Part shown: piece by piece, positions 44-10,619 of the stretch
Position numbering within the stretch: position 1 is the first letter of the stretch
Layout of the letters: every line of letters starts with the position of its first letter
NCBI GenBank assembly: GCA_025459285.1
Contig: JALOQY010000185.1
Location: 1 to 10,619, forward strand
Length of the DNA: 10,619 nucleotides
Origin: Planctomycetota bacterium
Lineage (GTDB): Bacteria > Planctomycetota > JAJSAM01
Direction of reading: 5' to 3'
Program-made: the position numbers and the translations under genes
The notes under the pieces: model-generated
What the model was told of the DNA's origin: nothing
The model's input: the letters and a program-made list of their open reading frames with translations, nothing else
Databases searched by the model: none

Positions 44-3000
44 TCAGCGGCGATCCTGCCCCCTCATCGACCGCCGGGCCTTACTGTCTGACTCGCAGTT
101 CGGATGGCCGATCATAAGGCCGGCGATCCCGACCTCGGGGCCCCAGACGGCGAGGCCGAAGCGGCGCTTCGCGAGAGGCGGCGCGGAGAGAGAGCGGAAG
201 ACCTCCACCCCGCCCACCACCACGGAGACCTTGTCCGCGATCCGGGTCACGAGGATCTCCGGGGGATCCGGCCACTCGGCGGGCGCGTCGAGCACGCGGA
301 TCGCGCGCAACACGTCGTAGCGCTCCAGGCGGGCGGTGAACCGGTCCTTGTCGGGGACGAGGATCAACGACCAGCCGGACAGCGTCAGCTCGTCTCCCTC
401 CCCGTCGAACGTCAGCGCCATCTTCGGAACGACGGGCCCTTCGAGAACGACCCGGAGCCGGAAATCGGATGGCGGAGGTCTCTTTTCCGGCGGAAGCCAC
501 AGCAGCGCGGCGGGGTGGTCCTGGGGGAAGCCCGGCCGGACCGAGAAGGGCCGCCATCCCGGGGCCCGCCCATCCTCCTCCCCCCGCAGGAGCTTGTTCC
601 TCAGCGTGAACTTCCCCGCCGCGACCTCGTACCCGGCGCCGAGACTGCGCCGCCCGAAACCGTCGCGGAACGTCTCTTCGAACTTGATCTTCGGCGGGGC
701 CGGAGAGGGATCCGGCGGGTCGAGGTCCTCCACCAGCCCCTCGATCGGCCGGCCGGACGGGTCCGTGAGCCGCAGCGTCAGGCCCGTGGCGCCCCAGCCG
801 TTCGCCACCTTCAGGAGCAGGCGGTTGCGGCCGGCGCCAAGGAGGATCGGCCAGCGCTCGAAGTCGGGGACGAGCGGCCGATCGCCCTGGCTCCGGTCCA
901 CGAACACACCGTTCTGCCAGAGCGCGACCTCGTCGTCGGCGCCGATCCACGCGAGGGCCGGGGTGGCCGCCGGAACCGTCACGTGGGTGAGCGCGTAGGT
1001 GACCGCGTGCTCCGGGTAGCCATAGCGGAACCAGACCGCACCCCGCCCGTCGAGCCGCGCGGAGTGCTCCGCCTCCGGATCCGCGATCCGCCACTTCGCG
1101 GTGTCCCCGGAACTCGCGTACTCCTTCAAGAAGTCGATCTCCTCCTCCGGCGGGAAGACCTCGCAGAGACCCGGGCCCGCGGAGGGGTAGAACGGTCCCA
1201 CGACGCGGAACTTCGTCACGACGCCGAGTTGACGGCGCAGTTCCGCCGCCTCCGCGCTCCCGCCCCGCCGGGTCGCGTCGAGGATCGCGAGGGCCGCCCA
1301 CCGCGCGCGCGCGGCGAGGAACGCGTCGCCGGAGTTGCGGGCGAGCGCGGCGAGGCCGGCCGCGTCGCCCCGCCGGGCCAGTTCGACGAACCACCTCTCC
1401 CGGCCGGTCTCCAGTTCCTCGACCTCGGCACCCGTCGCCCTGGACACCGGGAACCGCATCTCGGCGAGGGTGTCCCAGACCTCCTCCCCCATCGCCTTCG
1501 CGAGCGCCCAGCCGAAGCCGGCCATCAGCCGGTGGGTGAGCCGCGACTTTGAGACGGAATCCCGATAGAGGCGGAAGACCTGCCCCAGCTTCGGCCAGTC
1601 GGCGTGGCCGGCGGGCGCCGGGGCGTGCCGGGCGAGGATCTCCTCGAGCAGTCCTTCGCTCGGTTCGTAGGCCGGGATGAGCCAGTAGGCGTTCTCGCGA
1701 TCGAGGTGGTGCCGGCGGAGGGCGGCGCGGCCGCGCTCCGAGCGGGCGAGGAACACGCCCTTCTCGCCGGCGAACATGTCTTCCACGAAGTGCGCCCCGA
1801 GGTTCGCGAGACCCTCCGTGAGACCGCGCTTGTAGTCGTGAACCGGGCGGGTGTCGTCCACGCAGTGGGTGAGCTCGTGGTAGTAGAGTCCGTTGTCGAC
1901 CCGGACGTCCCTCTGCTCGGGCCTCGCGTCGCCCACCGTGATGAGCATGCCGCCGCCGGTGGCGGGGCCGCTGTACGTCTCCTTGTAGTAGACGATGACC
2001 CTCTCCCCGGGCGGGCAGGGGTCGCGCCCGAACAGGTCGGAGAGGAGCAGGCCGGCCACGTCGAGGCGGTAGGTCGACTCGCGCGGGATGGCCCGGACGA
2101 GCGTCTCCGGCCCGAGGTAGACGAGCCGCGAAGCGGGGATGGTGCCCAGCCGGTGGAACGAGGGATGGTCGGTCTCCTTCGCGAGGCGCGCCTGCTGTTC
2201 GGGGGTCAGGTCGTAGAGCAGGCGCTGCTCGATCCCCGCGAGCTGGCGCTCGGCCTCGGCCTTCTCCTTCCCGGTCGCGGTCCGGCAGAGCTTCGCCTCG
2301 ATCCAGAGCTTCCGCGCCCGCACGAGCCGGCCGGCCTTCGCCTCCCGCGCCGCGGCGGCGGAGATCTTCCCGGCATCCTCCCCCGCCTCGTCGAGCAGCT
2401 TCCGGCAGGCCGCGACATCCTCCTCGGCCATGTCGCGGAGCAGGCGCTGCTTCAGGTCCACCACATCCTTCTGCGCCCGGTCGGAATCGGCGGGCTCTCC
2501 CACCACGCGTTGGTTCCGCCCCTCTTCCACGACGCCGCCGACGACCTCCAGCACGCGGAGGGCGAGCTTCAGCTCCTTCTCCTTCAGGAGCTCGCTCGCG
2601 CGGTCCCGGAGCCATCGGAGCTTCTCTTCCGAAACCAGGGCGCGGATCCGGATCTCCTCGGCGCCGGAGACCGGCGCGCCGGCGGGGGGCGGGAGGGCGA
2701 GCAGCTCCGCCGCCACCGCGAGCTTGCCCGCCAGGTCTACCGACCGCCGGAGCGCTTCCCCGAGGAGTTCGAAGGCCGCCGCCGAGTCCCCCCGCTGCGC
2801 CCGCTCCCGGGCGGCGGTCCGGAGGTCGGCGGCGCTCGCCCGCCCGGAGGCCGCGGGGACGTGACCCACGAGGTACCGGCGGTCTCCGAACGGCGCGTCC
2901 CCGAGGAGGACGAAGCGCCCCTCGTACTCGTTCGTGAGCGTCGGGTCCCGGACGGCCACGAGGATCGAGGCCTCGGGCCGGCCGCCGTCCGCTCCCGCCG

Positions 3001-3301
3001 GGACCACGAGGATCTCCGTCCAGCGGACCGGCTCCCCGGGAACCCACTTCTCCATGGGGACCGGGGGCGCGTGCGAGACGACCGCGAGGAGCCGCCCCGT
3101 CCCGGCCTCCATGGCGACGAGTTCCACCGGCCAGGTGGCCGGCGGCGCGGCGTCGGCGAGGAAGGCGAGCCGGACGGCGATCCGCCCGGTCTCTCCGTAG
3201 AGCGACGCCGTGACCTCCGCCGACGGATGCACGGCGAGCCCCTCATCGGGCGGTGCGGCGAGCGCCGCGGCGCACAGGAGCAGGACGACCGGCACTCTCA
3301 T
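44..3301 (-). CDS. secreted multidomain protein with gluzincin-type zinc metallopeptidase motif (HExxH plus downstream xEGxA) and a central coiled-coil/TPR-like helical region
   Basis: This is the longest ORF in the region, and its composition is protein-like, unlike the Arg/Pro/Gly-rich overlapping ORFs 81..3047(-), 104..1552(+) and 1604..3355(+). The N-terminus MRVPVVLLLCAAALA|APP is a typical Sec signal peptide with an AxA cleavage site and no lipobox. HELTH sits at about aa 500, followed 17 residues later by LTEGLANL, which resembles the third zinc-ligand motif (NEGFA) of MA-clan gluzincins. A Glu/Lys/Arg/Ala-rich helical stretch covers about aa 220-380. The C-terminal ~300 aa are beta-rich and of unknown function. 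The start is ATG at 3299-3301. Confidence 0.7.
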   Translation of the reverse strand: MRVPVVLLLCAAALAAPPDEGLAVHPSAEVTASLYGETGRIAVRLAFLADAAPPATWPVELVAMEAGTGRLLAVVSHAPPVPMEKWVPGEPVRWTEILVVPAGADGGRPEASILVAVRDPTLTNEYEGRFVLLGDAPFGDRRYLVGHVPAASGRASAADLRTAARERAQRGDSAAAFELLGEALRRSVDLAGKLAVAAELLALPPPAGAPVSGAEEIRIRALVSEEKLRWLRDRASELLKEKELKLALRVLEVVGGVVEEGRNQRVVGEPADSDRAQKDVVDLKQRLLRDMAEEDVAACRKLLDEAGEDAGKISAAAAREAKAGRLVRARKLWIEAKLCRTATGKEKAEAERQLAGIEQRLLYDLTPEQQARLAKETDHPSFHRLGTIPASRLVYLGPETLVRAIPRESTYRLDVAGLLLSDLFGRDPCPPGERVIVYYKETYSGPATGGGMLITVGDARPEQRDVRVDNGLYYHELTHCVDDTRPVHDYKRGLTEGLANLGAHFVEDMFAGEKGVFLARSERGRAALRRHHLDRENAYWLIPAYEPSEGLLEEILARHAPAPAGHADWPKLGQVFRLYRDSVSKSRLTHRLMAGFGWALAKAMGEEVWDTLAEMRFPVSRATGAEVEELETGRERWFVELARRGDAAGLAALARNSGDAFLAARARWAALAILDATRRGGSAEAAELRRQLGVVTKFRVVGPFYPSAGPGLCEVFPPEEEIDFLKEYASSGDTAKWRIADPEAEHSARLDGRGAVWFRYGYPEHAVTYALTHVTVPAATPALAWIGADDEVALWQNGVFVDRSQGDRPLVPDFERWPILLGAGRNRLLLKVANGWGATGLTLRLTDPSGRPIEGLVEDLDPPDPSPAPPKIKFEETFRDGFGRRSLGAGYEVAAGKFTLRNKLLRGEEDGRAPGWRPFSVRPGFPQDHPAALLWLPPEKRPPPSDFRLRVVLEGPVVPKMALTFDGEGDELTLSGWSLILVPDKDRFTARLERYDVLRAIRVLDAPAEWPDPPEILVTRIADKVSVVVGGVEVFRSLSAPPLAKRRFGLAVWGPEVGIAGLMIGHPNCESDSKARRSMRGQDRR

Positions 3302-3366: not shown

Positions 3367-4260
3367 TCAGCGAATCGCGATCAGGCGGAAGTAGTAGTGG
3401 AGCGATGGCGCGGGGGCGTGGCGCTCGAGTTCCATGAGGAGCCGCGTGAACTCGTCGGGACGCGGCGGATGGGAGAGGACGACCTCGACCGTCGCGAAAC
3501 CGAAACCGAGCAGGCGGGCCCGGAGGCTCTCCGGGTCGAGGCCGGTGCCGTGGTGGTACTCCGCGAGGCGCTCCCGGGCCACCTCCTCCGGCGAATGGGA
3601 CCGGGCGGACTTCAGCGCGCGGCGCATGGCAAGCCACCAGGAAAACCGCTCGTGGAAGGCGGCGTTCGAGTCGTTGTCGGTGTAGAGGAAGCCCCCCGGG
3701 CGCAGCACCCGCGCGAACTCCCGCAGGCCGTCCGCGGGTTCACGAAGATGGTGGAGCAGCGAGTAAGCCGTCACGCCGTCGAAGCTCGCGTCCTCGAAGG
3801 GGAGCCGCGCCGCGCTGGCCCGGACGAGGTCGCCGTGGAAGCGGGCACACCGGGCGAGCATGCCGAGGGAGACGTCCGCGCCGGCCACGCGGGGGAACCG
3901 CGACCGCAGGAGCTCGAGGACGATCCCGCTGCCGCAGCCGGCGTCGAGGACCTCCCCGGGGCCGGAGACGGTCTCCCTCAGACGGTCGAGCGTCCGCGCG
4001 ACGTCCCCGTAACACTCGTCGGGCCGGGCCGTCTCGAGGTCGTAGTCCGCGGCGTGGGCGTCGTGGAAGATCGCGTTCGCCTCCTCCACGGCCCGCGCCC
4101 CGGGGTCGGCCGAGCGCGCCAGGAGATCCGGGATCCCCTCCGGCGCGAGCGGCCAGCGCCGGCCGGAGCGTTCCGCCACCAGCGCCCCGCCGTCGAACCG
4201 GAGCGGATCGCCGCCGAGCGGACAGCGGAGCTTCCCGAGCAGCCAGTCCGAGAGGGCCAT
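3367..4260 (-). CDS. Trm112-like zinc-ribbon domain fused to class I SAM-dependent methyltransferase (Methyltransf_11/25 type)
   Basis: The N-terminus LLGKLRCPLGGDPLRF matches the Trm112p-like motif. It is followed by VLDAGCGSG (SAM motif I), DVSLGML (post-I), FDGV (motif II) and LRPGG (motif III). The ATG is at 4258-4260, with TAGAAT 6 nt upstream on the minus strand. The stop TGA is at 3367-3369. Confidence 0.85.
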   Translation of the reverse strand: MALSDWLLGKLRCPLGGDPLRFDGGALVAERSGRRWPLAPEGIPDLLARSADPGARAVEEANAIFHDAHAADYDLETARPDECYGDVARTLDRLRETVSGPGEVLDAGCGSGIVLELLRSRFPRVAGADVSLGMLARCARFHGDLVRASAARLPFEDASFDGVTAYSLLHHLREPADGLREFARVLRPGGFLYTDNDSNAAFHERFSWWLAMRRALKSARSHSPEEVARERLAEYHHGTGLDPESLRARLLGFGFATVEVVLSHPPRPDEFTRLLMELERHAPAPSLHYYFRLIAIR

Positions 4261-4296: not shown

Positions 4297-4317
4297 CTGC
4301 TACAATCCGCCTCGCCC

Positions 4318-5322
4318 GTGGATGCCCCCGTCATCGTACGAATCCTCGCCGAGGAACCCGCCGCATGGTGGGACGAGGTGGCGTTGCGCGCACGCTCGAT
4401 CTGGCACACGCGGGACTTCGCCCGACTCCACCGCGAGTGTGGCGGAACGGTCCGGTTCCTCGCCGCTTTCCGTGGGGCAACACCCACCGGGGTCGCCCTC
4501 CTCCTCCTCGGAGGCAGCCGGAAGCTCCCCCTCCTCGACATCCTCTTCGCCCGTGTCGCCCTCGTGCCGGACGAGCCAGCGGCGGGAGACCGGGAGTCGG
4601 CGATCGCGCTCCTCGGCGGCCTCCTCGCCGAGGCCCGGCGGGCGCGGGCGGCGGAGGCGTCGGTGCGCGTGGAGCTGCCGAGGTTCCTCGATGTCCCGGA
4701 CCTCACGGAGCGTGGACTCGCCGCCCGGCGGCGGGGCATCGCCCTGATCGAGGTGCCGCCGGACCCGGCGGCCGTGGAGCGCGGGATGGCCGCCCCCGCC
4801 CGGCGCCAGGCGCGGAAGGCTGCGCGGCTCGGAGTGCGGGTGGAAGTCGCGGACGGCGTGGAGCCCCTCCTCCCGCTCCTCGATCTCTCGTTCCTCCGGT
4901 CCGGCCTGCCGCCGCGGGACCACGGCTATGTCCGCGCGCTTGACCGGTGCCTGCCGGCGGAGGTGCTCGTCGCCCGGAAGGACGGGCGTGACCTGGCGGC
5001 GCTGCTCTGGGTGGCAAGGGGAGAGATGGGGCTCAACATCTTCCACGGCCGCGCGGACGGGGACGTGGAGGGAGCACCGAACCTGCTCCACCGGGAGATG
5101 CTCGAACAGGCCTCCCGGCGAGGCGTCCGGCTCCTCCACACCGGCGACGCCGCGCTTCCCGGGGAGACCGATCCGCGGATCCTCGGGATCACCCGCTTCA
5201 AGGAGTCCCTGGGCTTCGCGATCCACCCGGCCTTCCAGGGCTCGATCGCCCTGCGACCGTTCTCCGCGGGCCTGCGCCGGAGGCTCCTCGCGCTGCGGAC
5301 CGGGGCGGGGAGGCGGCGATGA
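4318..5322 (+). CDS. FemAB/CelD/BioF2-like GNAT-fold (Acetyltransf_6-type) acyl- or aminoacyl-transferase
   Basis: This is the 3' portion of track ORF 3253..5322. The part upstream of 4318 is antisense to the 3367..4260 methyltransferase and is rejected. The first plausible in-frame start is GTG 4318, with CTG 4297 as an alternative; there is no in-frame ATG for more than 150 codons. The protein is MDAPVIVRILAEEPAAWWDEV... (about 334 aa). Its C-terminal half, LLWVARGEMGLNIFHGRADG...NLLHREMLEQASRRGVRLLHTGD, resembles the FemAB-like GNAT family. The TGA stop overlaps the downstream ATG as ATGA. Confidence 0.65.
   Translation: MDAPVIVRILAEEPAAWWDEVALRARSIWHTRDFARLHRECGGTVRFLAAFRGATPTGVALLLLGGSRKLPLLDILFARVALVPDEPAAGDRESAIALLGGLLAEARRARAAEASVRVELPRFLDVPDLTERGLAARRRGIALIEVPPDPAAVERGMAAPARRQARKAARLGVRVEVADGVEPLLPLLDLSFLRSGLPPRDHGYVRALDRCLPAEVLVARKDGRDLAALLWVARGEMGLNIFHGRADGDVEGAPNLLHREMLEQASRRGVRLLHTGDAALPGETDPRILGITRFKESLGFAIHPAFQGSIALRPFSAGLRRRLLALRTGAGRRR
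5309..5313 (+). promoter_or_regulatory. Shine-Dalgarno GGAGG 5 nt upstream of ATG 5319
   Basis: gggGGAGGcggcgATG, read directly from the sequence. It lies inside the 3' end of the upstream gene, which fits translational coupling. Confidence 0.55.
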
Positions 5323-6071
5323 ACCGCGAGGGCGGCGGCCTCGGTCCATGGGCGGAGATCTACCGCCGGCGCGCGGCGCTCGATCCGCTGCGCGCCGTGC
5401 TCGACGAGGGCGATCCCGACAACCGGAAGAACGTCTACGTGGATGCGCTGGACCGGTTCTGGCTGCGCCGGGCGCTGGGTCCGCGCAGGTACGGCGCGGC
5501 GGTGGACCTCGGCTGCGGCGTGGGCCGTCTGACCGGACTGCTCGCGGGGCGGTCACGCCTGACCATCGGGGTCGACGCCTCGGAGGCGCTGCTCGCGGCG
5601 GCGGCGCTCCGGTCCGGACGGTCCGCGGGCCTGGTCCGGGGGGCGCTCGGCGCGCTGCCGCTGCCGGCCGGCCGGAGCGACCTCGTGGTCTGCTGGCAGG
5701 TCCTCCTCCACCTCGTCGGCGACTCCGACATGGCAGCGGCGATCGGAGAAGTCCGGAGACTCCTCGCGCCCGGTGGCCGTGCGGTCTTCGCGGAGCACTT
5801 CGCACCGGGAGCGGAGACGCTGCGTCGCGAAGGAGTCGTCTACCGGTCCGCGCCGGATGTCCTCGGGGCGTTGCGGGCCGCGGGCCTGCGGGTGGAGTCG
5901 GCCTTCGCGATCCGCAAGTCCCCCTCGCGCCTCGTGCACCTGGTCCGCCGGGGCCGCCTCCCCCGCCCGCTGTGGCCGCTTTCGGCGCGTCTCGAGCGCC
6001 TTCTCGCCTTCGCCGGCCGAGCCCCCCCCCTCTACCGCGACTGGCTCGTCGTGGGCCGCCCGTCGACGTGA
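5319..6071 (+). CDS. class I SAM-dependent methyltransferase
   Basis: AVDLGCGVGRL (motif I), GVDASEALL (post-I), SDLVVCWQVLLHL (motif II region) and LLAPGGRAVF (motif III). The start is ATG with an SD, and the stop TGA is at 6069-6071. Confidence 0.85.
   Translation: MNREGGGLGPWAEIYRRRAALDPLRAVLDEGDPDNRKNVYVDALDRFWLRRALGPRRYGAAVDLGCGVGRLTGLLAGRSRLTIGVDASEALLAAAALRSGRSAGLVRGALGALPLPAGRSDLVVCWQVLLHLVGDSDMAAAIGEVRRLLAPGGRAVFAEHFAPGAETLRREGVVYRSAPDVLGALRAAGLRVESAFAIRKSPSRLVHLVRRGRLPRPLWPLSARLERLLAFAGRAPPLYRDWLVVGRPST
6022..6030. repeat. C9 homopolymer tract inside the 3' end of the 5319..6071 methyltransferase CDS
   Basis: gagCCCCCCCCCtctacc, read directly. It encodes ...RAPPLY... in the current frame. 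Confidence 0.9.
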
Positions 6072-6356: not shown

Positions 6357-8696
6357 CTACACGCCGGCGGCCGAGAGGATCGCCTTCTGGACTTCCTTCA
6401 CCGTGAGCCGGCCCACGTTCACCGCGGTGCAGGGCACCTTGCGGAAGAGGCGTTCGAACTGGCGGCGCTGGAGCTCCGTGTGCTCGAGGCTGCGGACGAG
6501 AAGGTGCGGGTTGAGGAACGGGGTCGAGCGCCCGGTGTGGTCACGCCCCTCTTCCACGTGCCGCGTGGCGATGTCCGGAGCGAGCTTCTCCACGTCCTTC
6601 GCGATCGCGTCGCGCCGGAGGAGGATCACCGCCTTGAGGGTCGTCCGCTTCGCGTGCCGGTCCGATCCGAGCCAGTACGGATCGAGCATCGCCCGGCTCG
6701 CCTCCCCGCCGAAGAAGCAGTAGGGCTCGCCGCGATCGAGCGGGCAGACGGCGGACTGCGGGCAGTCCTTGTGGGCGCACTCCTCCTTCGAGGTGGCCAC
6801 GTTCTCGCACTTCGACCGGTCGAAGAGCGGCTCGAGGGCCGGGATCTTCTCCGCCATGTCGGTGGGGACGTAGAGCTTGCGCTCCGGGGTGTCGGCGACG
6901 ACTCCGCCGCCCTGGTGACGCACGAAGACGAAGTCGGTGCTCACGAGTTTCGAGTCGGCGCGCTTCAGGAGTTCCGCCAGGTGGCCGGTCTTGCCGGTCC
7001 CCTCCGGTCCGAGGAGCAGCACGCCCTTCCCGCCGACCTCCACGCACATGCCGCGCACGCCGTGCAGGTCGTGGACGCGCTCCCCCACGTCGGTGACGAG
7101 GCCGAGCGCGAGCGACCGGAGCTGCCCGTAATACGCCGACTTCATGAAGAAGCCGGTGCGGGTCTCGGAGTGGTAGTAGGCCTTCTGGTCCTTACCGGGG
7201 ATCCAGTTCACGCCGTAGAGCACGCCGTGCGGCTCGATGTCGCTCTCGAGCGGCGAGGGGAACCAGTTCTCCACGAAGAAGTCGTAGAGGTGCGGGCTGT
7301 TCGTCCGGAGCTGGACGACGAGCCCGGAGATGTTCGCGTTCCACTCGAAGTACGGCTGGTCGCGCAGGAAGGAGTCGCAGTCCGCGACCATGGCGTCCCG
7401 CGCGGAAAGCGACATCTGGGTCTCGGTCTCCACGAAGCCCTTGACCTGCGTGACCGTGTTCGCGAGCTGCTTCTTCCGCGTCGCGCGCGCCGGCTTCAGC
7501 ATCGCGAGCGCGTCGGCCATGCGGTCCATGGCCTCGGCGATGCGATCGTAGGAGGTGGCGTAGGAGAGCCGGATGCAGTTCGGCCCGCCGAAGGAGTCGC
7601 CGGGCACCACCGCCACGTGGCCGTGGCGCAGGAGGTGGTAGGCGAGCCCGTAGGAGTTGCGGATCGGCGTACCGTCGCACTCCATCCGGTACGTCGGGGT
7701 GACGTTCGGGAAGAGATAGAAGGCCCCCTCCGCGCGGTGGCAGGTGACGCCCGGCATCGTGAGGAGCCGGGAGTGCATCATGTTCCGCCGCCGGAGGAAC
7801 TCCTCCCGCATCCTCACGATCTCGTCCTGCGGCCCGGTGAGGGCGGCGAGCGCCGCCATCTGGCTCACCGTGCAGGGGTTGCTCGTGGTGTGGCTCTGGA
7901 GGCGCCCCATCGCCTGGATGATCTCGGCGGGGCCGGCGGCGTAGCCGATGCGCCAGCCGGTCATCGAGTACGCCTTGCTCATCCCGTTCACGACCACGGT
8001 CTGGGCCTTGATCTTCGGCGAGAGCGCGGCGATCGACACGAATTCGAGACCGTCGTAGACGAGCTTTTCGTAGATCTCGTCGGCGATGATGAGCAACCCC
8101 TCGTCCGCGGCGGCCTCGCAGACCTCCATGAGCTGCGACCTCGTGTAGGCCGCCCCCGTGGGGTTCCCGGGGTTGTTGATGATGACGGCCTTCGTGCTCG
8201 CGGACAGCGCCCCCTTGAGCTGCTTCGCCGTGAGCCGGAAACCGTTCTGCTCGCTGGTATCGACGTAAACGGAGATCCCCTTGGCGAGGGACACCATCTC
8301 CGGGTAGCTCACCCAAAAGGGCGCGGGGATGATGACCTCCTCGTCCTTGTTGATCGTGGCGAGGAGAAGGTGGTAGAGGGACGCCTTCGCCCCGCAGGAG
8401 ACGATGATCTCCGACGACGGGTCGTAGGTGAGGCGGTTGTCGTCCTTCAGCTTCCGGGCGATGGCCCGGCGGAGTTCGATGAGCCCCTCCGCCGCGGTGT
8501 ACTTCGTGTACCCCTTCTCCATCGCCTCGTACGCCGCGAGGCGGATGTTGCGGGGCGTGGGGAAGTCCGGCTCGCCGACGGAGAGGTCGATGACGTCGAT
8601 ACCCTCCGCCTGCATGGCTTTGGCCTTGGCGGAGATCTTCAGCGTCGGCGAGAAGCCGACCCGCTTCATCCGCTCGGCCAGCATGGTTTCGGGCAC
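6357..8696 (-). CDS. class I aspartate/aromatic aminotransferase (PLP-dependent) fused in frame to an HprK-like (PEPCK-superfamily) P-loop kinase domain with a Cys-rich segment
   Basis: Residues 1-~395 contain GEPDFPTP, NPGNPTG and SKAYSMTGWRIGY (PLP-binding Lys), and overall resemble Thermus-type AspAT. They end with the usual ...RLSYATS...AMDRMADAL tail. The ORF then continues for about 380 more residues with no stop. Within that extension, HDLHGVRGMCVEVGGKGVLLLGPEGTGKTGHLAELLKRADSKLVSTDFVFV aligns with the HprK catalytic core pattern LHGV..V.V.G.GVL..G.SG.GKSE.ALEL.KRGH.LVADD.V.I, and the Walker A GPEGTGKT is intact. Further on there is a Cys cluster, C-x9-C-x4-C-x5-C-x8-C (SKCENVATSKEECAHKDCPQSAVCPLDRGEPYC). 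The start is GTG, preceded by AAGGAG at the correct spacing and lying 2 nt after the upstream stop. The complementary-strand ORFs 6480..8849(+) and 7192..8748(-) have a shadow-ORF composition. Confidence 0.9.
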   Translation of the reverse strand: MPETMLAERMKRVGFSPTLKISAKAKAMQAEGIDVIDLSVGEPDFPTPRNIRLAAYEAMEKGYTKYTAAEGLIELRRAIARKLKDDNRLTYDPSSEIIVSCGAKASLYHLLLATINKDEEVIIPAPFWVSYPEMVSLAKGISVYVDTSEQNGFRLTAKQLKGALSASTKAVIINNPGNPTGAAYTRSQLMEVCEAAADEGLLIIADEIYEKLVYDGLEFVSIAALSPKIKAQTVVVNGMSKAYSMTGWRIGYAAGPAEIIQAMGRLQSHTTSNPCTVSQMAALAALTGPQDEIVRMREEFLRRRNMMHSRLLTMPGVTCHRAEGAFYLFPNVTPTYRMECDGTPIRNSYGLAYHLLRHGHVAVVPGDSFGGPNCIRLSYATSYDRIAEAMDRMADALAMLKPARATRKKQLANTVTQVKGFVETETQMSLSARDAMVADCDSFLRDQPYFEWNANISGLVVQLRTNSPHLYDFFVENWFPSPLESDIEPHGVLYGVNWIPGKDQKAYYHSETRTGFFMKSAYYGQLRSLALGLVTDVGERVHDLHGVRGMCVEVGGKGVLLLGPEGTGKTGHLAELLKRADSKLVSTDFVFVRHQGGGVVADTPERKLYVPTDMAEKIPALEPLFDRSKCENVATSKEECAHKDCPQSAVCPLDRGEPYCFFGGEASRAMLDPYWLGSDRHAKRTTLKAVILLRRDAIAKDVEKLAPDIATRHVEEGRDHTGRSTPFLNPHLLVRSLEHTELQRRQFERLFRKVPCTAVNVGRLTVKEVQKAILSAAGV

Positions 8697-8698
8697 CG

Positions 8699-10018
8699 CT
8701 ACTTCTCCTTCTTCTCGTCCGCCTTCCCGGGCTTCTTGCCGGCCTCATCCGCCTCGCCGCCCGTGAGCTTCTTCGCGAGCTTCTTCAGGTCGATACCGCC
8801 GAGGGACTCCGCGATCTCCGGGAGCTGGGCGAGGACCTGCGCCACCTGACCGGTGATCTTCGCCACGCCCTTCCCCTCGCCTCCGGTGTCCACGATGACG
8901 ATCTTGTCGATCTTCGGCGGCCTCGTTGTACTCCTTGTAGGACTCGGCCCGCATCTCCATGGCCTTCGCCTCGGCCTCGCCGCGCAGGCGGATGGCGTCG
9001 GCATCGGCTTCCGCGAGCACCCTCGCCGCGGCGGCCTGCCCCTTCGCCTCGGCCTCGCGCTTGTAGGCCTCGGCCTCGGCCTCGATGTAGACCTGCCTCT
9101 TCCGGGCCTCCGCCGTCTTGTGGACGGTGGCGGTCAGCTCCTTCTCCCGGCGGGCGATCTCGAGTTCCTCGAGTTCGATCAGCTTCTCGCGCTCCACGAT
9201 GCGGACGTTCAGCTCCTCGGCCTTCAACTCCGAGTTCCGCTTCTGGCGCTCCAGTTCGTAGGCAATGTCGGCCTCGGCCTTCTTCTGGTTCACCTCGCCG
9301 GCGAAGCCGGCCCGGGCGGTCTCGAAGTCCCGGTTCGCGCGGGCAACCTCGGTCTCCGCGACGAGCCGCGCGATGTCCCCGGTCTTCCGGGCCTCGGCGG
9401 TCTTGATCGCCGCCTCCTTGTCGGTCTCGGCCTCGGAGATCTCGGCGTCGCGCTTGGCGGCGGCGATCTTCGGCTTGCCGAGCGCCTCCAGATAGCCCTG
9501 GTTGTCGGAGATGTCGATCAGGGTGAAGGAGAGCAGGTCGAGCCCCATCCGCCGGAGCTCGTTCTGCGTGGCCTTCTCCACCTTCTCGTTGAACTCGTCG
9601 CGCTGCTGGTAGATGTCCTCCACCGCGTGCGAGCCGAGGTAGGCGCGGAGCGTCCCCTCCATCACCTGGGAGCCGGTGTCGCGGATCGCCGCGGCGCCGC
9701 CGCCGAGGAACTGCTCGGCGGCCATCCGGATCGCCTGCTCGGAGGAGCCGACCTTGAGCTGCGCCTGGCCGACGGCGTTGAGCTGCACGCCGCCCTTGGT
9801 CAGCGCGTCGGTGACCTTCGCCTGCACGGTGTAGGTTTCCAGCGGCAGCACCTGCGCGGTCTGGAACAGCGGCAGGACGAAGGCGCCGCCGCCGATCCGC
9901 ATCTTGTAGCCCACCGTCCGGACCGTGCCGTCCACCTCGCGGACCTGCTGGCGCAGACCGCCCGAGACGATGAGCACCTCGAGAGGCCGAAAACGCCCCA
10001 GAATCCGATCGCAACCAT
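8699..10018 (-). pseudogene. flotillin family protein (SPFH/band-7, FloT/reggie-like) with the reading frame interrupted twice
   Basis: Track ORF 8745..9977(-) aligns well to B. subtilis FloT and human flotillin-1 across the SPFH and EA-repeat regions (EGTLRAYLGSHAVEDIYQQRDEFNEKV...LGKPKIAAAKRDAEISEAETDKEAAIKTAEA). The true ATG is at 10018, preceded by AGGAGA. It encodes MVAIGFWGVF and then falls out of frame at the A4 run 9990..9993; adding one A would give MVAIGFWGVFRPLEVLIVSGG. After ...ESYKEYNEAA, near 8912..8924, the flotillin C-terminus KIDKIVIVDTGGEGKGVAKITGQVAQVLAQLPEIAESLGG... continues in another frame, as track ORF 8699..9004. About 20 residues of the usual LPE.A...PLS segment are missing. 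Confidence 0.75.
8705..8710 (-). promoter_or_regulatory. Shine-Dalgarno AAGGAG for the aminotransferase-kinase fusion, embedded in the last codons of the flotillin gene
   Basis: The minus strand reads aagAAGGAGaagTAGcgGTG: the SD sits 8 nt before the GTG, with the flotillin stop TAG in between. Confidence 0.5.
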
Positions 10019-10027: not shown

Positions 10028-10619
10028 CTAGAAGTTCCTGCCCCCGAGCGGACGGCGCGGCCTCCGGGCCGGCTCGTAGTCCGCGAAGTAATCGCGGCGC
10101 GGGGCCTCGCGGCGCCCGGGGTCCTTCTTCTCTTCCGGTAAACTGAATGCCACCTGCACCTTCGCCGGGCGGGCGATCCCGTAGGACTCCTCCGCCGCCC
10201 GGATGATCTCCGGGTCGAGCCCCTCGGCGGCGATCTCGGCGGTGAACTCCCGCCTCCCGTCCACGATGTCCCTCACGTAGGCCTCGATCTGGTCCTTCGG
10301 ATAGAGCTTCTCCACCTCGTAGGCCGAGAGGTCGAAGCCCTCCACGCGACGGATCTCGCGAGTTCCGAGCCGGCCATCGGCATACTCGTTCGTGCCGCGG
10401 AGGTCGCCGCGCTGGATCGCGGCCATCAGCTCGATCGGGACGCGCGCCGCCTTGCGCACGAAGTGCTTCTTCTTGAGTCCGCCCTCGATCCTCTCCTCGA
10501 GGATCTCCCCCATGCCGCCGGTGTTGTACTGGAAGAACTTCACCTTGCCGGGATACGTGGCGCAGAGGGACATCACGATGTCCCGGAAACGGTTCACCTT
10601 GAACTGATGAGGAAGGTGC
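10028..10619 (-). CDS. PEP carboxykinase (ATP)-like protein, C-terminal part; the ORF continues upstream past the window edge
   Basis: The track ORF begins at GTG 10597, but the frame stays open to 10619 (...HLPHQFKVNRFRDIVMSLCATYPGKVKFFQYNTGGMGE...). The pattern LHP.QY....L...M......KV.F.QYNTGW.G...., followed by the R..L.A...G and LYPKD(Q) region, resembles the C-terminal lobe of ATP-dependent PEPCK ([32 protein letters not shown]... in E. coli PckA). It carries a C-terminal extension of about 50 aa. The family assignment is of moderate confidence. Confidence 0.55.
   Translation of the reverse strand, partial: HLPHQFKVNRFRDIVMSLCATYPGKVKFFQYNTGGMGEILEERIEGGLKKKHFVRKAARVPIELMAAIQRGDLRGTNEYADGRLGTREIRRVEGFDLSAYEVEKLYPKDQIEAYVRDIVDGRREFTAEIAAEGLDPEIIRAAEESYGIARPAKVQVAFSLPEEKKDPGRREAPRRDYFADYEPARRPRRPLGGRNF

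Follow-up and report, generated by a model that had tools for sequence, protein, structure and literature searches.

Does a single bacterial gene join a complete aspartate aminotransferase (AspAT) to a P-loop domain, and if so, what is the second half of its product? The question is raised by the gene at 6357..8696 on the reverse strand of a 10,619-nucleotide contig from a Planctomycetota bacterium (GenBank assembly GCA_025459285.1, contig JALOQY010000185.1), the whole of which is hereafter called the window. In the list of open reading frames (ORFs) this gene is GTG-started and runs for 779 codons plus a stop. The original prediction, made from the sequence alone, took the second half for an HprK-like kinase domain with a cysteine-rich segment. 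We find that one 779-aa frame does encode a complete AspAT-type aminotransferase and a P-loop domain of the phosphoenolpyruvate carboxykinase (PEPCK)/HprK superfamily; the superfamily was thus correctly recognized, but HprK itself is not the identity of the domain, whose predicted fold matches PEPCK. It is most fittingly described as a novel domain family, derived from PEPCK, in an architecture that is also new and within a conserved operon. A full-text literature search found no description of an AspAT joined to such a compact PEPCK-fold domain (hereafter mini-PEPCK), in line with the original prediction, whose author knew of no described AspAT-HprK architecture.

Whether the fusion is genuine can be judged from its distribution. 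We scanned one genome per GTDB species for relatives of the C-terminal domain, which are encoded by at least 493 species, and kept the best 80 loci; about 78 of these 80 carry the aminotransferase and the C-terminal part in one uninterrupted frame. The C-terminal 380 aa retrieve 67 homologous protein clusters (best E=2e-178), and the full-length protein retrieves more than 120 clusters of 775-825 aa, each above 900 bits. The same architecture, which had been proposed as a search target, is found in more than 10 phyla. The carriers are mostly uncultured bacteria and include Planctomycetota, Zixibacteria, KSB1, Calditrichota, Ignavibacteria/Bacteroidota, Aminicenantes/Acidobacteriota, Gemmatimonadota, Latescibacterota, Eisenbacteria, TA06 and others. 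Where the full-length homologs are named at all in public databases they are called only "aminotransferase", and their C-terminal ~370 aa are unannotated. The closest relative, in a Planctomycetota metagenome-assembled genome (locus L004), is 69-76% identical and syntenic, including the gene for a 1085-aa neighbor.

The junction itself (residues ~400-430; 7407..7499, reverse strand) contains a conserved L-x-N-x-x-T motif, of which L411, N413 and T416 are nearly invariant across homologs, and the same motif opens the stand-alone proteins P0051-P0057 described below. Strands are predicted at residues 412-414 and the model confidence (pLDDT) falls to 62 at residues 401-410; in the model, the C-terminal fold begins with strands that this motif supplies, and the flexible linker is shorter than 10 residues. 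Two loci appear split, L003 (8724-11065) and L067 (6824-9149). Both have frameshifts inside the aminotransferase part and lie on long-read-style contigs, and in L003 a single open frame runs from the end of the aminotransferase across the junction and through the C-terminal domain. These breaks are probably indel errors, through which gene callers report a separate 354-aa protein (P0033). A public gene call of 775 aa (P0068), on another public contig, is 100% identical to the fusion protein. Because this gene call and the homolog consensus begin there, the true start is probably an ATG at 8684, which lies four codons further in than the GTG and gives a protein of 775 aa; an exact protein look-up with the 779-aa form found no match because the public gene call begins four codons later. 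It had been suggested that the junction might unite two genes through a collapsed stop codon, a chimeric contig or a frameshift, and the contig does have flaws, since deletions break the frame of the adjoining flotillin gene in the window. Nevertheless, the uninterrupted fusion recurs across independent genomes and protein clusters, the junction residues are conserved and the identical protein comes from a second contig. We thus reject such an artefact as the source of the fusion, and put its chance at close to nil.

The aminotransferase half (residues 34-392; 7521..8597, reverse strand) belongs to class I/II and resembles subgroup Ib AspATs. It matches Pfam PF00155 (Aminotran_1_2) at E=4.9e-75, with 253.4 bits against a gathering cut-off of 19.7, over profile positions 2-360 of 361. 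All the motifs quoted in the original prediction are present where it placed them: NPGNPTG occupies residues 175-181, the lysine that binds pyridoxal phosphate (PLP), K241 (7974-7976, reverse strand), lies in SKAYS within SKAYSMTGWRIGY, and the P-loop and cysteines are treated below. With this Pfam match and with C-terminal homologs reaching E=2e-178, the ORF and its motifs are far above chance. K104, N178, D206, Y209, K241 and R376 are invariant in 58 full-length homologs and align with the AspATs 8wkj and 1j32; the roles of these positions, among them the PLP lysine and the Ib-type lysine for the distal carboxylate, are established AspAT biochemistry. These suggest a catalytically intact module of class Ib. 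Alignments with PDB entries run end to end for 8wkj and 1j32 (E~1e-105), for bifunctional AspAT/prephenate aminotransferases (1e-86) and for Thermus AspAT (1e-82). Compared with class Ib AspATs (Phormidium lapideum 1j32, Thermus thermophilus 1bjw, AspAT/prephenate 5wmh and 6f35), which the N-terminal 400 aa resemble at E=1e-82 to 1e-105 with an intact active site, the fusion protein adds a 380-aa C-terminal extension and a family-specific conserved insert, IRNSYGLAY, near residues 345-353. It also differs in falling below every NCBIfam equivalog cut-off; the best match, aspartate transaminase PRK06107, scores 401.9 bits under a cut-off of 617. Aspartate aminotransferase is therefore given as the best-supported assignment, with a predicted substrate specificity.

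The C-terminal domain (residues ~431-779; 6360..7406, reverse strand) was compared with known structures. The best-scoring match is the ATP-dependent PEPCK of Trypanosoma cruzi (1ii2; score 30.9, coverage 338/380), followed by GTP-PEPCK (24.0, 343), the Euglena complex I subunit NDUEG2 (19.3, 267), PPi-PEPCK (16.8, 343) and HprK/P chains (12.2-12.7, 132-156). A Foldseek search ranks PEPCKs in every one of its top 50 places (best E=8e-17; TMq reaches 0.77). HprK is thus not the best structural match for the whole domain, and because the matches to PEPCK exceed those to HprK/P in both score and coverage, the model is that of a whole PEPCK fold rather than of an HprK kinase with an extra segment. 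As modeled, the domain is a compact, ~370-aa version of the complete two-subdomain PEPCK fold, that is, a PEPCK paralog. The profile of the domain family also aligns with that of the PEPCK family encoded next door plus E. coli PckA (hhalign probability 95%, E=7e-9). Pfam PF01293 gives no match to the 779-aa protein at E<=0.1, and no NCBIfam PEPCK model matches it. Of the two domain hits that had been expected, Aminotran_1_2 is strong and Hpr_kinase_C (PF07475) appears only below its threshold (24.6 bits, gathering 33.3), over residues 547-599 and profile positions 9-60 of 171. With Pfam under threshold and a PEPCK fold over the whole domain, we reject an HprK-type kinase as its identity. The C-terminal domain of HprK/P (PF07475; 1ko7, 1jb1) belongs to the same PEPCK-like P-loop superfamily, and its sequence motifs around the P-loop, LHGV..V.V.G.GVL..G..G.GK and D-x4-R, are the nearest to those of the mini-PEPCK and are shared with it.

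NDUEG2 of Euglena respiratory complex I (8j9h) is eukaryotic and mitochondrial, is 11% identical to the mini-PEPCK and lacks an aminotransferase, and the analogy extends only to the idea that PEPCK folds may serve as non-canonical subunits. The top Foldseek match, 9a4u_A, is an integrative model from crosslinking mass spectrometry and deep learning titled "PCKA-QOX2". Judging by the names, this is presumably a PEPCK paired with a quinol-oxidase subunit, in which case it would offer a precedent, though an unrelated one, for a PEPCK that contacts a membrane complex.

How much of a PEPCK active site the domain retains was assessed in 76 family members, with residue correspondences taken from the alignment of the family profile with the neighbor PEPCK family and E. 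coli PckA. In PckA, K213, H232 and D269 are Mn ligands, R65 and R333 serve the substrate, and K254 and T255 belong to the P-loop. The Walker A sequence GPEGTGKT of the window protein (residues 563-570; 6987..7010, reverse strand) aligns with GLSGTGKT at PckA 248-255 and is preceded by LHGV, the whole of LHGV...GVLLLGPEGTGKT covering residues 544-570. Several positions are well kept: Y508 (PckA Y207) and E631-N632 (E311-N312) are invariant, D588 (D269) is found in 73/76 members, H545 within LHGV (H232) in 61/76, E511 (E210) is mostly Glu or Asp, and R/K513 (K212) is mostly basic (Arg in 33, Lys in 32). Others are not. The Mn ligand K213 is replaced by Thr (T514) in 74/76, R668 (R333) is Arg in 25/76, the D268 equivalent is not conserved, and a profile alignment of the N-terminal subdomain gave no significant match to the PEPCK region that bears R65. 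A canonical Walker A ([GAS]xxxxGK[ST]) occurs in 17/76 members and a non-canonical one in 59/76, the common variants being GPKGTKKTE, GTGKM/A/I/L/V, GTGGST, GCGRGT and GTGRKG; in several members the lysine itself is replaced by R, G or L. Thus the family as a whole has neither the PEPCK catalytic set, given the states of K213 and R333, nor the family-wide GxxGxGK[ST] of an HprK-type kinase (17/76). The window protein belongs to a minority that keeps the canonical P-loop, H545, D588 and R668 together. Both halves had been called catalytically competent, which is upheld for the aminotransferase and doubtful for the mini-PEPCK.

A different set of residues is invariant: Y523, R527, R593, E605-R606-K607, D672-P673, W675 and K683, and in the N-terminal subdomain residues that include W452, T465, N466 and H469. 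The invariant positions Y508, Y523, R527, R593, E605-K607, E631-N632, D672-P673 and W675 indicate a putative conserved binding site or interface. Because the P-loop and the K213 position have degenerated while this other set is invariant, selection appears to act on something other than canonical PEPCK or kinase chemistry. Compared with ATP-PEPCK (PckA; 1ii2, 1aq2, 2pc9), the mini-PEPCK is also much shorter (~370 aa versus ~540 aa), has no match to Pfam PEPCK_ATP, is fused to an aminotransferase, and carries a Cys-rich insertion in place of the segment between LENV and ENTR.

This insertion contains most of the cysteine cluster, C630-x9-C640-x4-C645-x5-C651-x8-C660 (6717..6809, reverse strand), whose five cysteines have exactly the spacing first described, C-x9-C-x4-C-x5-C-x8-C. 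They are conserved in 71, 74, 66, 74 and 67 of the 76 members, respectively. C630 sits in an invariant SKCEN motif that is common to the cysteine-poor stand-alone clade, and C640, C645, C651 and C660 lie in the insertion, which that clade (P0051-P0057) lacks. C645 is replaced by His in 7/76 members and C660 by Ser in 8/76. An exchange of Cys for His is typical of a metal ligand, and since C645 makes this exchange, the best inference is a structural Cys4 or Cys3His metal site. The cluster is thus real and conserved, and the metal binding suggested for it earlier is probable on this pattern. Within the model, confidence is lowest in the insertion (pLDDT 71-83).

What surrounds the gene? In an all-against-all clustering of the ORFs from 81 loci, no more than three families recur: the fusion in 80 loci, a flotillin in 68 and a protein of ~610 aa in 44. 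The flotillin (SPFH/Band 7; Pfam Band_7 E=6.8e-23, NCBIfam FloT 271 bits) is encoded in the window at 8699..10018 on the reverse strand, directly upstream of the fusion gene. It lies directly upstream on the same strand in 62/64 loci with at least 1.7 kb of upstream sequence, and is on the same strand in 70/70; the gap from its stop to the start of the fusion gene is at most 60 nt in 37/65 loci and at most 240 nt in 60/65. From this arrangement the flotillin and the fusion are predicted to be co-transcribed as one operon. The order of a flotillin followed by a close, co-transcribed partner gene is also that of known bacterial flotillin operons (FloT/YuaG with the NfeD-type YuaF), whereas the partner here is a soluble metabolic enzyme fusion and not NfeD. 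A review of the operon partners of SPFH proteins (PMC2636767) names neither an aminotransferase nor a carboxykinase among them.

The window's copy of the flotillin gene is broken by two frame-shifting deletions. The N-terminal stretch "MVAIGFWGVFG" (start 10018) and "LEVLIVSGG..." (from ~9990) lie in different frames, most of the membrane hairpin is missing, and near 8916-8947 about 20 codons (the equivalent of IYQMLIEKLPELARAVSEPLS) are missing and the frame changes again. The flotillins of relatives are intact at ~470 aa. The window copy is either a pseudogene or an assembly error.

The third recurrent family is a divergent ATP-dependent PEPCK. Its last 196 codons lie in the window at 10028..10619 on the reverse strand, in a frame that stays open to the right edge; the 189-aa GTG-started gene in the ORF list is in fact this 3' end of a ~610-660-aa protein. 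Full-length neighbors (609-663 aa) match PF01293 (E=1e-25 to 5e-27) and reach 282-286 bits with NF006821, short of its cut-off of 369. They keep Y207, E210, K212, K213, H232, the P-loop, D268, D269, K288, E311, N312 and R333 in 42/42 cases, which points to a divergent but catalytically complete PEPCK clade, itself under-described. Of 40 well-covered loci, 29 have it no more than 8 kb from the fusion: 19 of them place it downstream and 3 upstream, in each case on the same strand, and the other 7 place it upstream on the opposite strand.

More distant relatives bear on the role of the domain. When 1.84 billion representative proteins were searched exhaustively with an HMM, 681 relatives emerged at E<=1e-3, and 92 at E<=1e-30. 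Among these relatives is P0206 (899 aa; L088 8001-10700, also L089 and L090), whose N-terminal mini-PEPCK is joined to a PEPCK with 43% identity to the bacterial neighbor type (E=1e-136). Three contigs, each from a different sequencing run, carry it in low-GC, archaeal-looking surroundings that include TFIIE-like, V4R and Roadblock-like genes. In place of a Walker A it has only the destroyed form GSSENDIAT, from which it appears that its mini domain cannot be a P-loop kinase and that the protein is a natural tandem of pseudo-PEPCK and PEPCK. Gene linkage and gene fusion thus independently tie the mini-PEPCK to the neighbor PEPCK clade, a Rosetta-stone relation. In P0260 (754 aa), a distant high-GC relative, an intein (PF14890) follows immediately after the P-loop (APTGTGKS|...). 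Inteins typically sit at functionally critical sites, and this one hints that the P-loop may be critical in that stand-alone branch. The genes around two other remote stand-alone relatives, P0231 and P0225, gave no clue to the role of the domain. Finally, a clade of stand-alone 357-aa proteins (L001 10001-12095, L085 8001-10196, L086 732-2790) has no Cys insertion but a canonical APTGTGKST and a DD pair. It is always preceded by an ORF of 62-67 aa and followed by a Peptidase_S49 (ClpP-fold) protein, and because all the examples share this one synteny it counts as a single observation. A link from here to the SPFH partner NfeD was considered and is weakened, as the downstream gene is mainly Peptidase_S49 and its NfeD1b_N match (37.5, gathering 40) is below threshold.

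The conserved association of flotillin, fusion and PEPCK suggests that they form an enzyme complex, not described so far, where central metabolic routes meet. AspAT interconverts aspartate and 2-oxoglutarate with oxaloacetate and glutamate, and PEPCK interconverts oxaloacetate and phosphoenolpyruvate (PEP). Because the product of the one is the substrate of the other, and because the domain is linked to PEPCK in three different gene arrangements and by the P0206 fusion, we give an about even chance to an aspartate-oxaloacetate-PEP module, in which the PEPCK-fold domain is a ligand-binding adaptor or regulatory pseudo-subunit that couples the aminotransferase dimer to the true PEPCK, and in which the flotillin may be a membrane platform. 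The replacement of K213 and the scarcity of R333 and of a canonical Walker A are the grounds for a non-catalytic role. In such a module the aminotransferase would make or consume oxaloacetate; the PEPCK-like domain would bind oxaloacetate, PEP or nucleotide and would pair with the true PEPCK, so that labile oxaloacetate would be passed on and not released; and the flotillin would possibly organize the assembly at the membrane. Several points weigh against the module. PEPCK is absent from the 8-kb flanks in 11 of the 40 well-covered loci, mostly in Zixibacteria and Eisenbacteria; the disruption of the flotillin in the window means either that the scaffold is dispensable here or that the assembly is faulty; and in the window's own lineage, where the P-loop is intact, the domain may have remained active in phosphotransfer. 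The full-length AlphaFold model, moreover, has confident domains but no fixed orientation between them (pTM 0.56), and the idea that the two active sites might face each other found no support in it. Pairing with PEPCK, channeling, the non-catalytic role and flotillin scaffolding are something we infer rather than observe. A stronger version would have flotillin, fusion and divergent PEPCK form a dedicated, membrane-raft-anchored metabolon that channels aspartate to PEP, or PEP to aspartate, through protein-bound oxaloacetate, with the PEPCK-fold domain acting as a minimal carboxykinase with a Thr-based metal site or as an obligate activating pseudo-subunit of PEPCK; this we regard as unlikely.

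The original prediction offered three roles, of which an enzyme that acts on keto-amino-acid intermediates comes closest to the evidence, since oxaloacetate links AspAT and PEPCK. In its strict form this would be a bifunctional enzyme, whose C-terminal domain is an active minimal kinase or carboxykinase with a modified metal site that works on the oxaloacetate made by the aminotransferase, or in the reverse direction. The window protein and its closest relatives (L004 and L011) keep GxxGxGK[ST], the H232, D269 and R333 equivalents and a basic residue at K212, the fold is that of a whole PEPCK enzyme, and both the stand-alone clade with its APTGTGKST and DD pair and the intein behind the P-loop of P0260 would agree with catalysis. 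Across the family, however, the Mn ligand has become Thr, the D268 equivalent is not conserved, most members have a non-canonical Walker A, some without its lysine, and neither a Pfam PEPCK match nor a counterpart of the R65 region is detected; a complete PEPCK usually lies next door, which would make a second one redundant. Bifunctionality thus seems improbable; it is most plausible for the window's own clade, where the P-loop is intact. An aminotransferase regulated by its attached kinase, the second role, survives as a minority view: the domain would act like HprK/P as a kinase/phosphorylase on a serine of the aminotransferase, the PEPCK or the flotillin according to metabolite levels. We hold this to be still more improbable, as the Hpr_kinase_C score stays under its threshold, the whole domain, with its PEPCK-type N-terminal subdomain, fits PEPCK much better, no HPr-like gene is conserved nearby, and the degeneracy of the P-loop in the family together with its full loss in P0206 is hard to square with a conserved kinase function. 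The third role, a kinase that tailors peptides (of the RiPP or lasso-peptide kind) fused to an aminotransferase, draws on a distant HprK-like resemblance and on a faint ScmC Pfam match in one remote relative. The neighborhood clustering rejects it: flotillin and PEPCK are the only recurrent neighbors, and no precursor peptide, PqqD/RRE protein, cyclase, protease, maturation enzyme or HPr-like gene recurs near the fusion in the 81 loci. As the fold is also that of PEPCK, we give peptide tailoring practically no credence.

In the remainder of the window, the gene at 44-3301 on the reverse strand encodes the 1085-aa protein mentioned above, which has a signal-peptide-like N-terminus and no Pfam or NCBIfam family, and which is 58% identical to the product of the syntenic gene in L004 (14045-17134). 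A SAM-dependent methyltransferase gene follows at 3367-4260 (reverse strand), then a GNAT-like Acetyltransf_6 ORF at ~4300-5319 and a second SAM-dependent methyltransferase gene at 5319-6071 (both forward); none of these three is conserved beside the fusion in other genomes. In the stretch downstream of the fusion gene, no terminator or promoter consensus was found. Because the window is about 70% G+C, several frames contain long ORFs, and a 789-aa ORF antisense to the fusion gene (6480..8849, forward strand) is rejected as an artefact of high-GC composition. Comparable antisense ORFs occur in related high-GC loci, where they form a cluster of 141-aa ORFs.

These results point to a so far undescribed organization of the aspartate/oxaloacetate/PEP junction, through which gluconeogenesis and amino-acid catabolism are entered in many uncultured lineages of sediments and anaerobic habitats, and they offer a correction to metabolic reconstructions for genomes of Zixibacteria, Calditrichota, KSB1, Aminicenantes, Ignavibacteria and Planctomycetota. 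The mini-PEPCK illustrates how, in nature, a P-loop enzyme can be on its way to becoming a pseudo-enzyme, and the fusion is a candidate client for bacterial flotillins, whose cargo is poorly defined. If the metabolon proposal were true, this would be the first bacterial flotillin with a defined cargo from central metabolism, and the domain would represent a new branch of the PEPCK superfamily that is widespread in the FCB group and other uncultured phyla.

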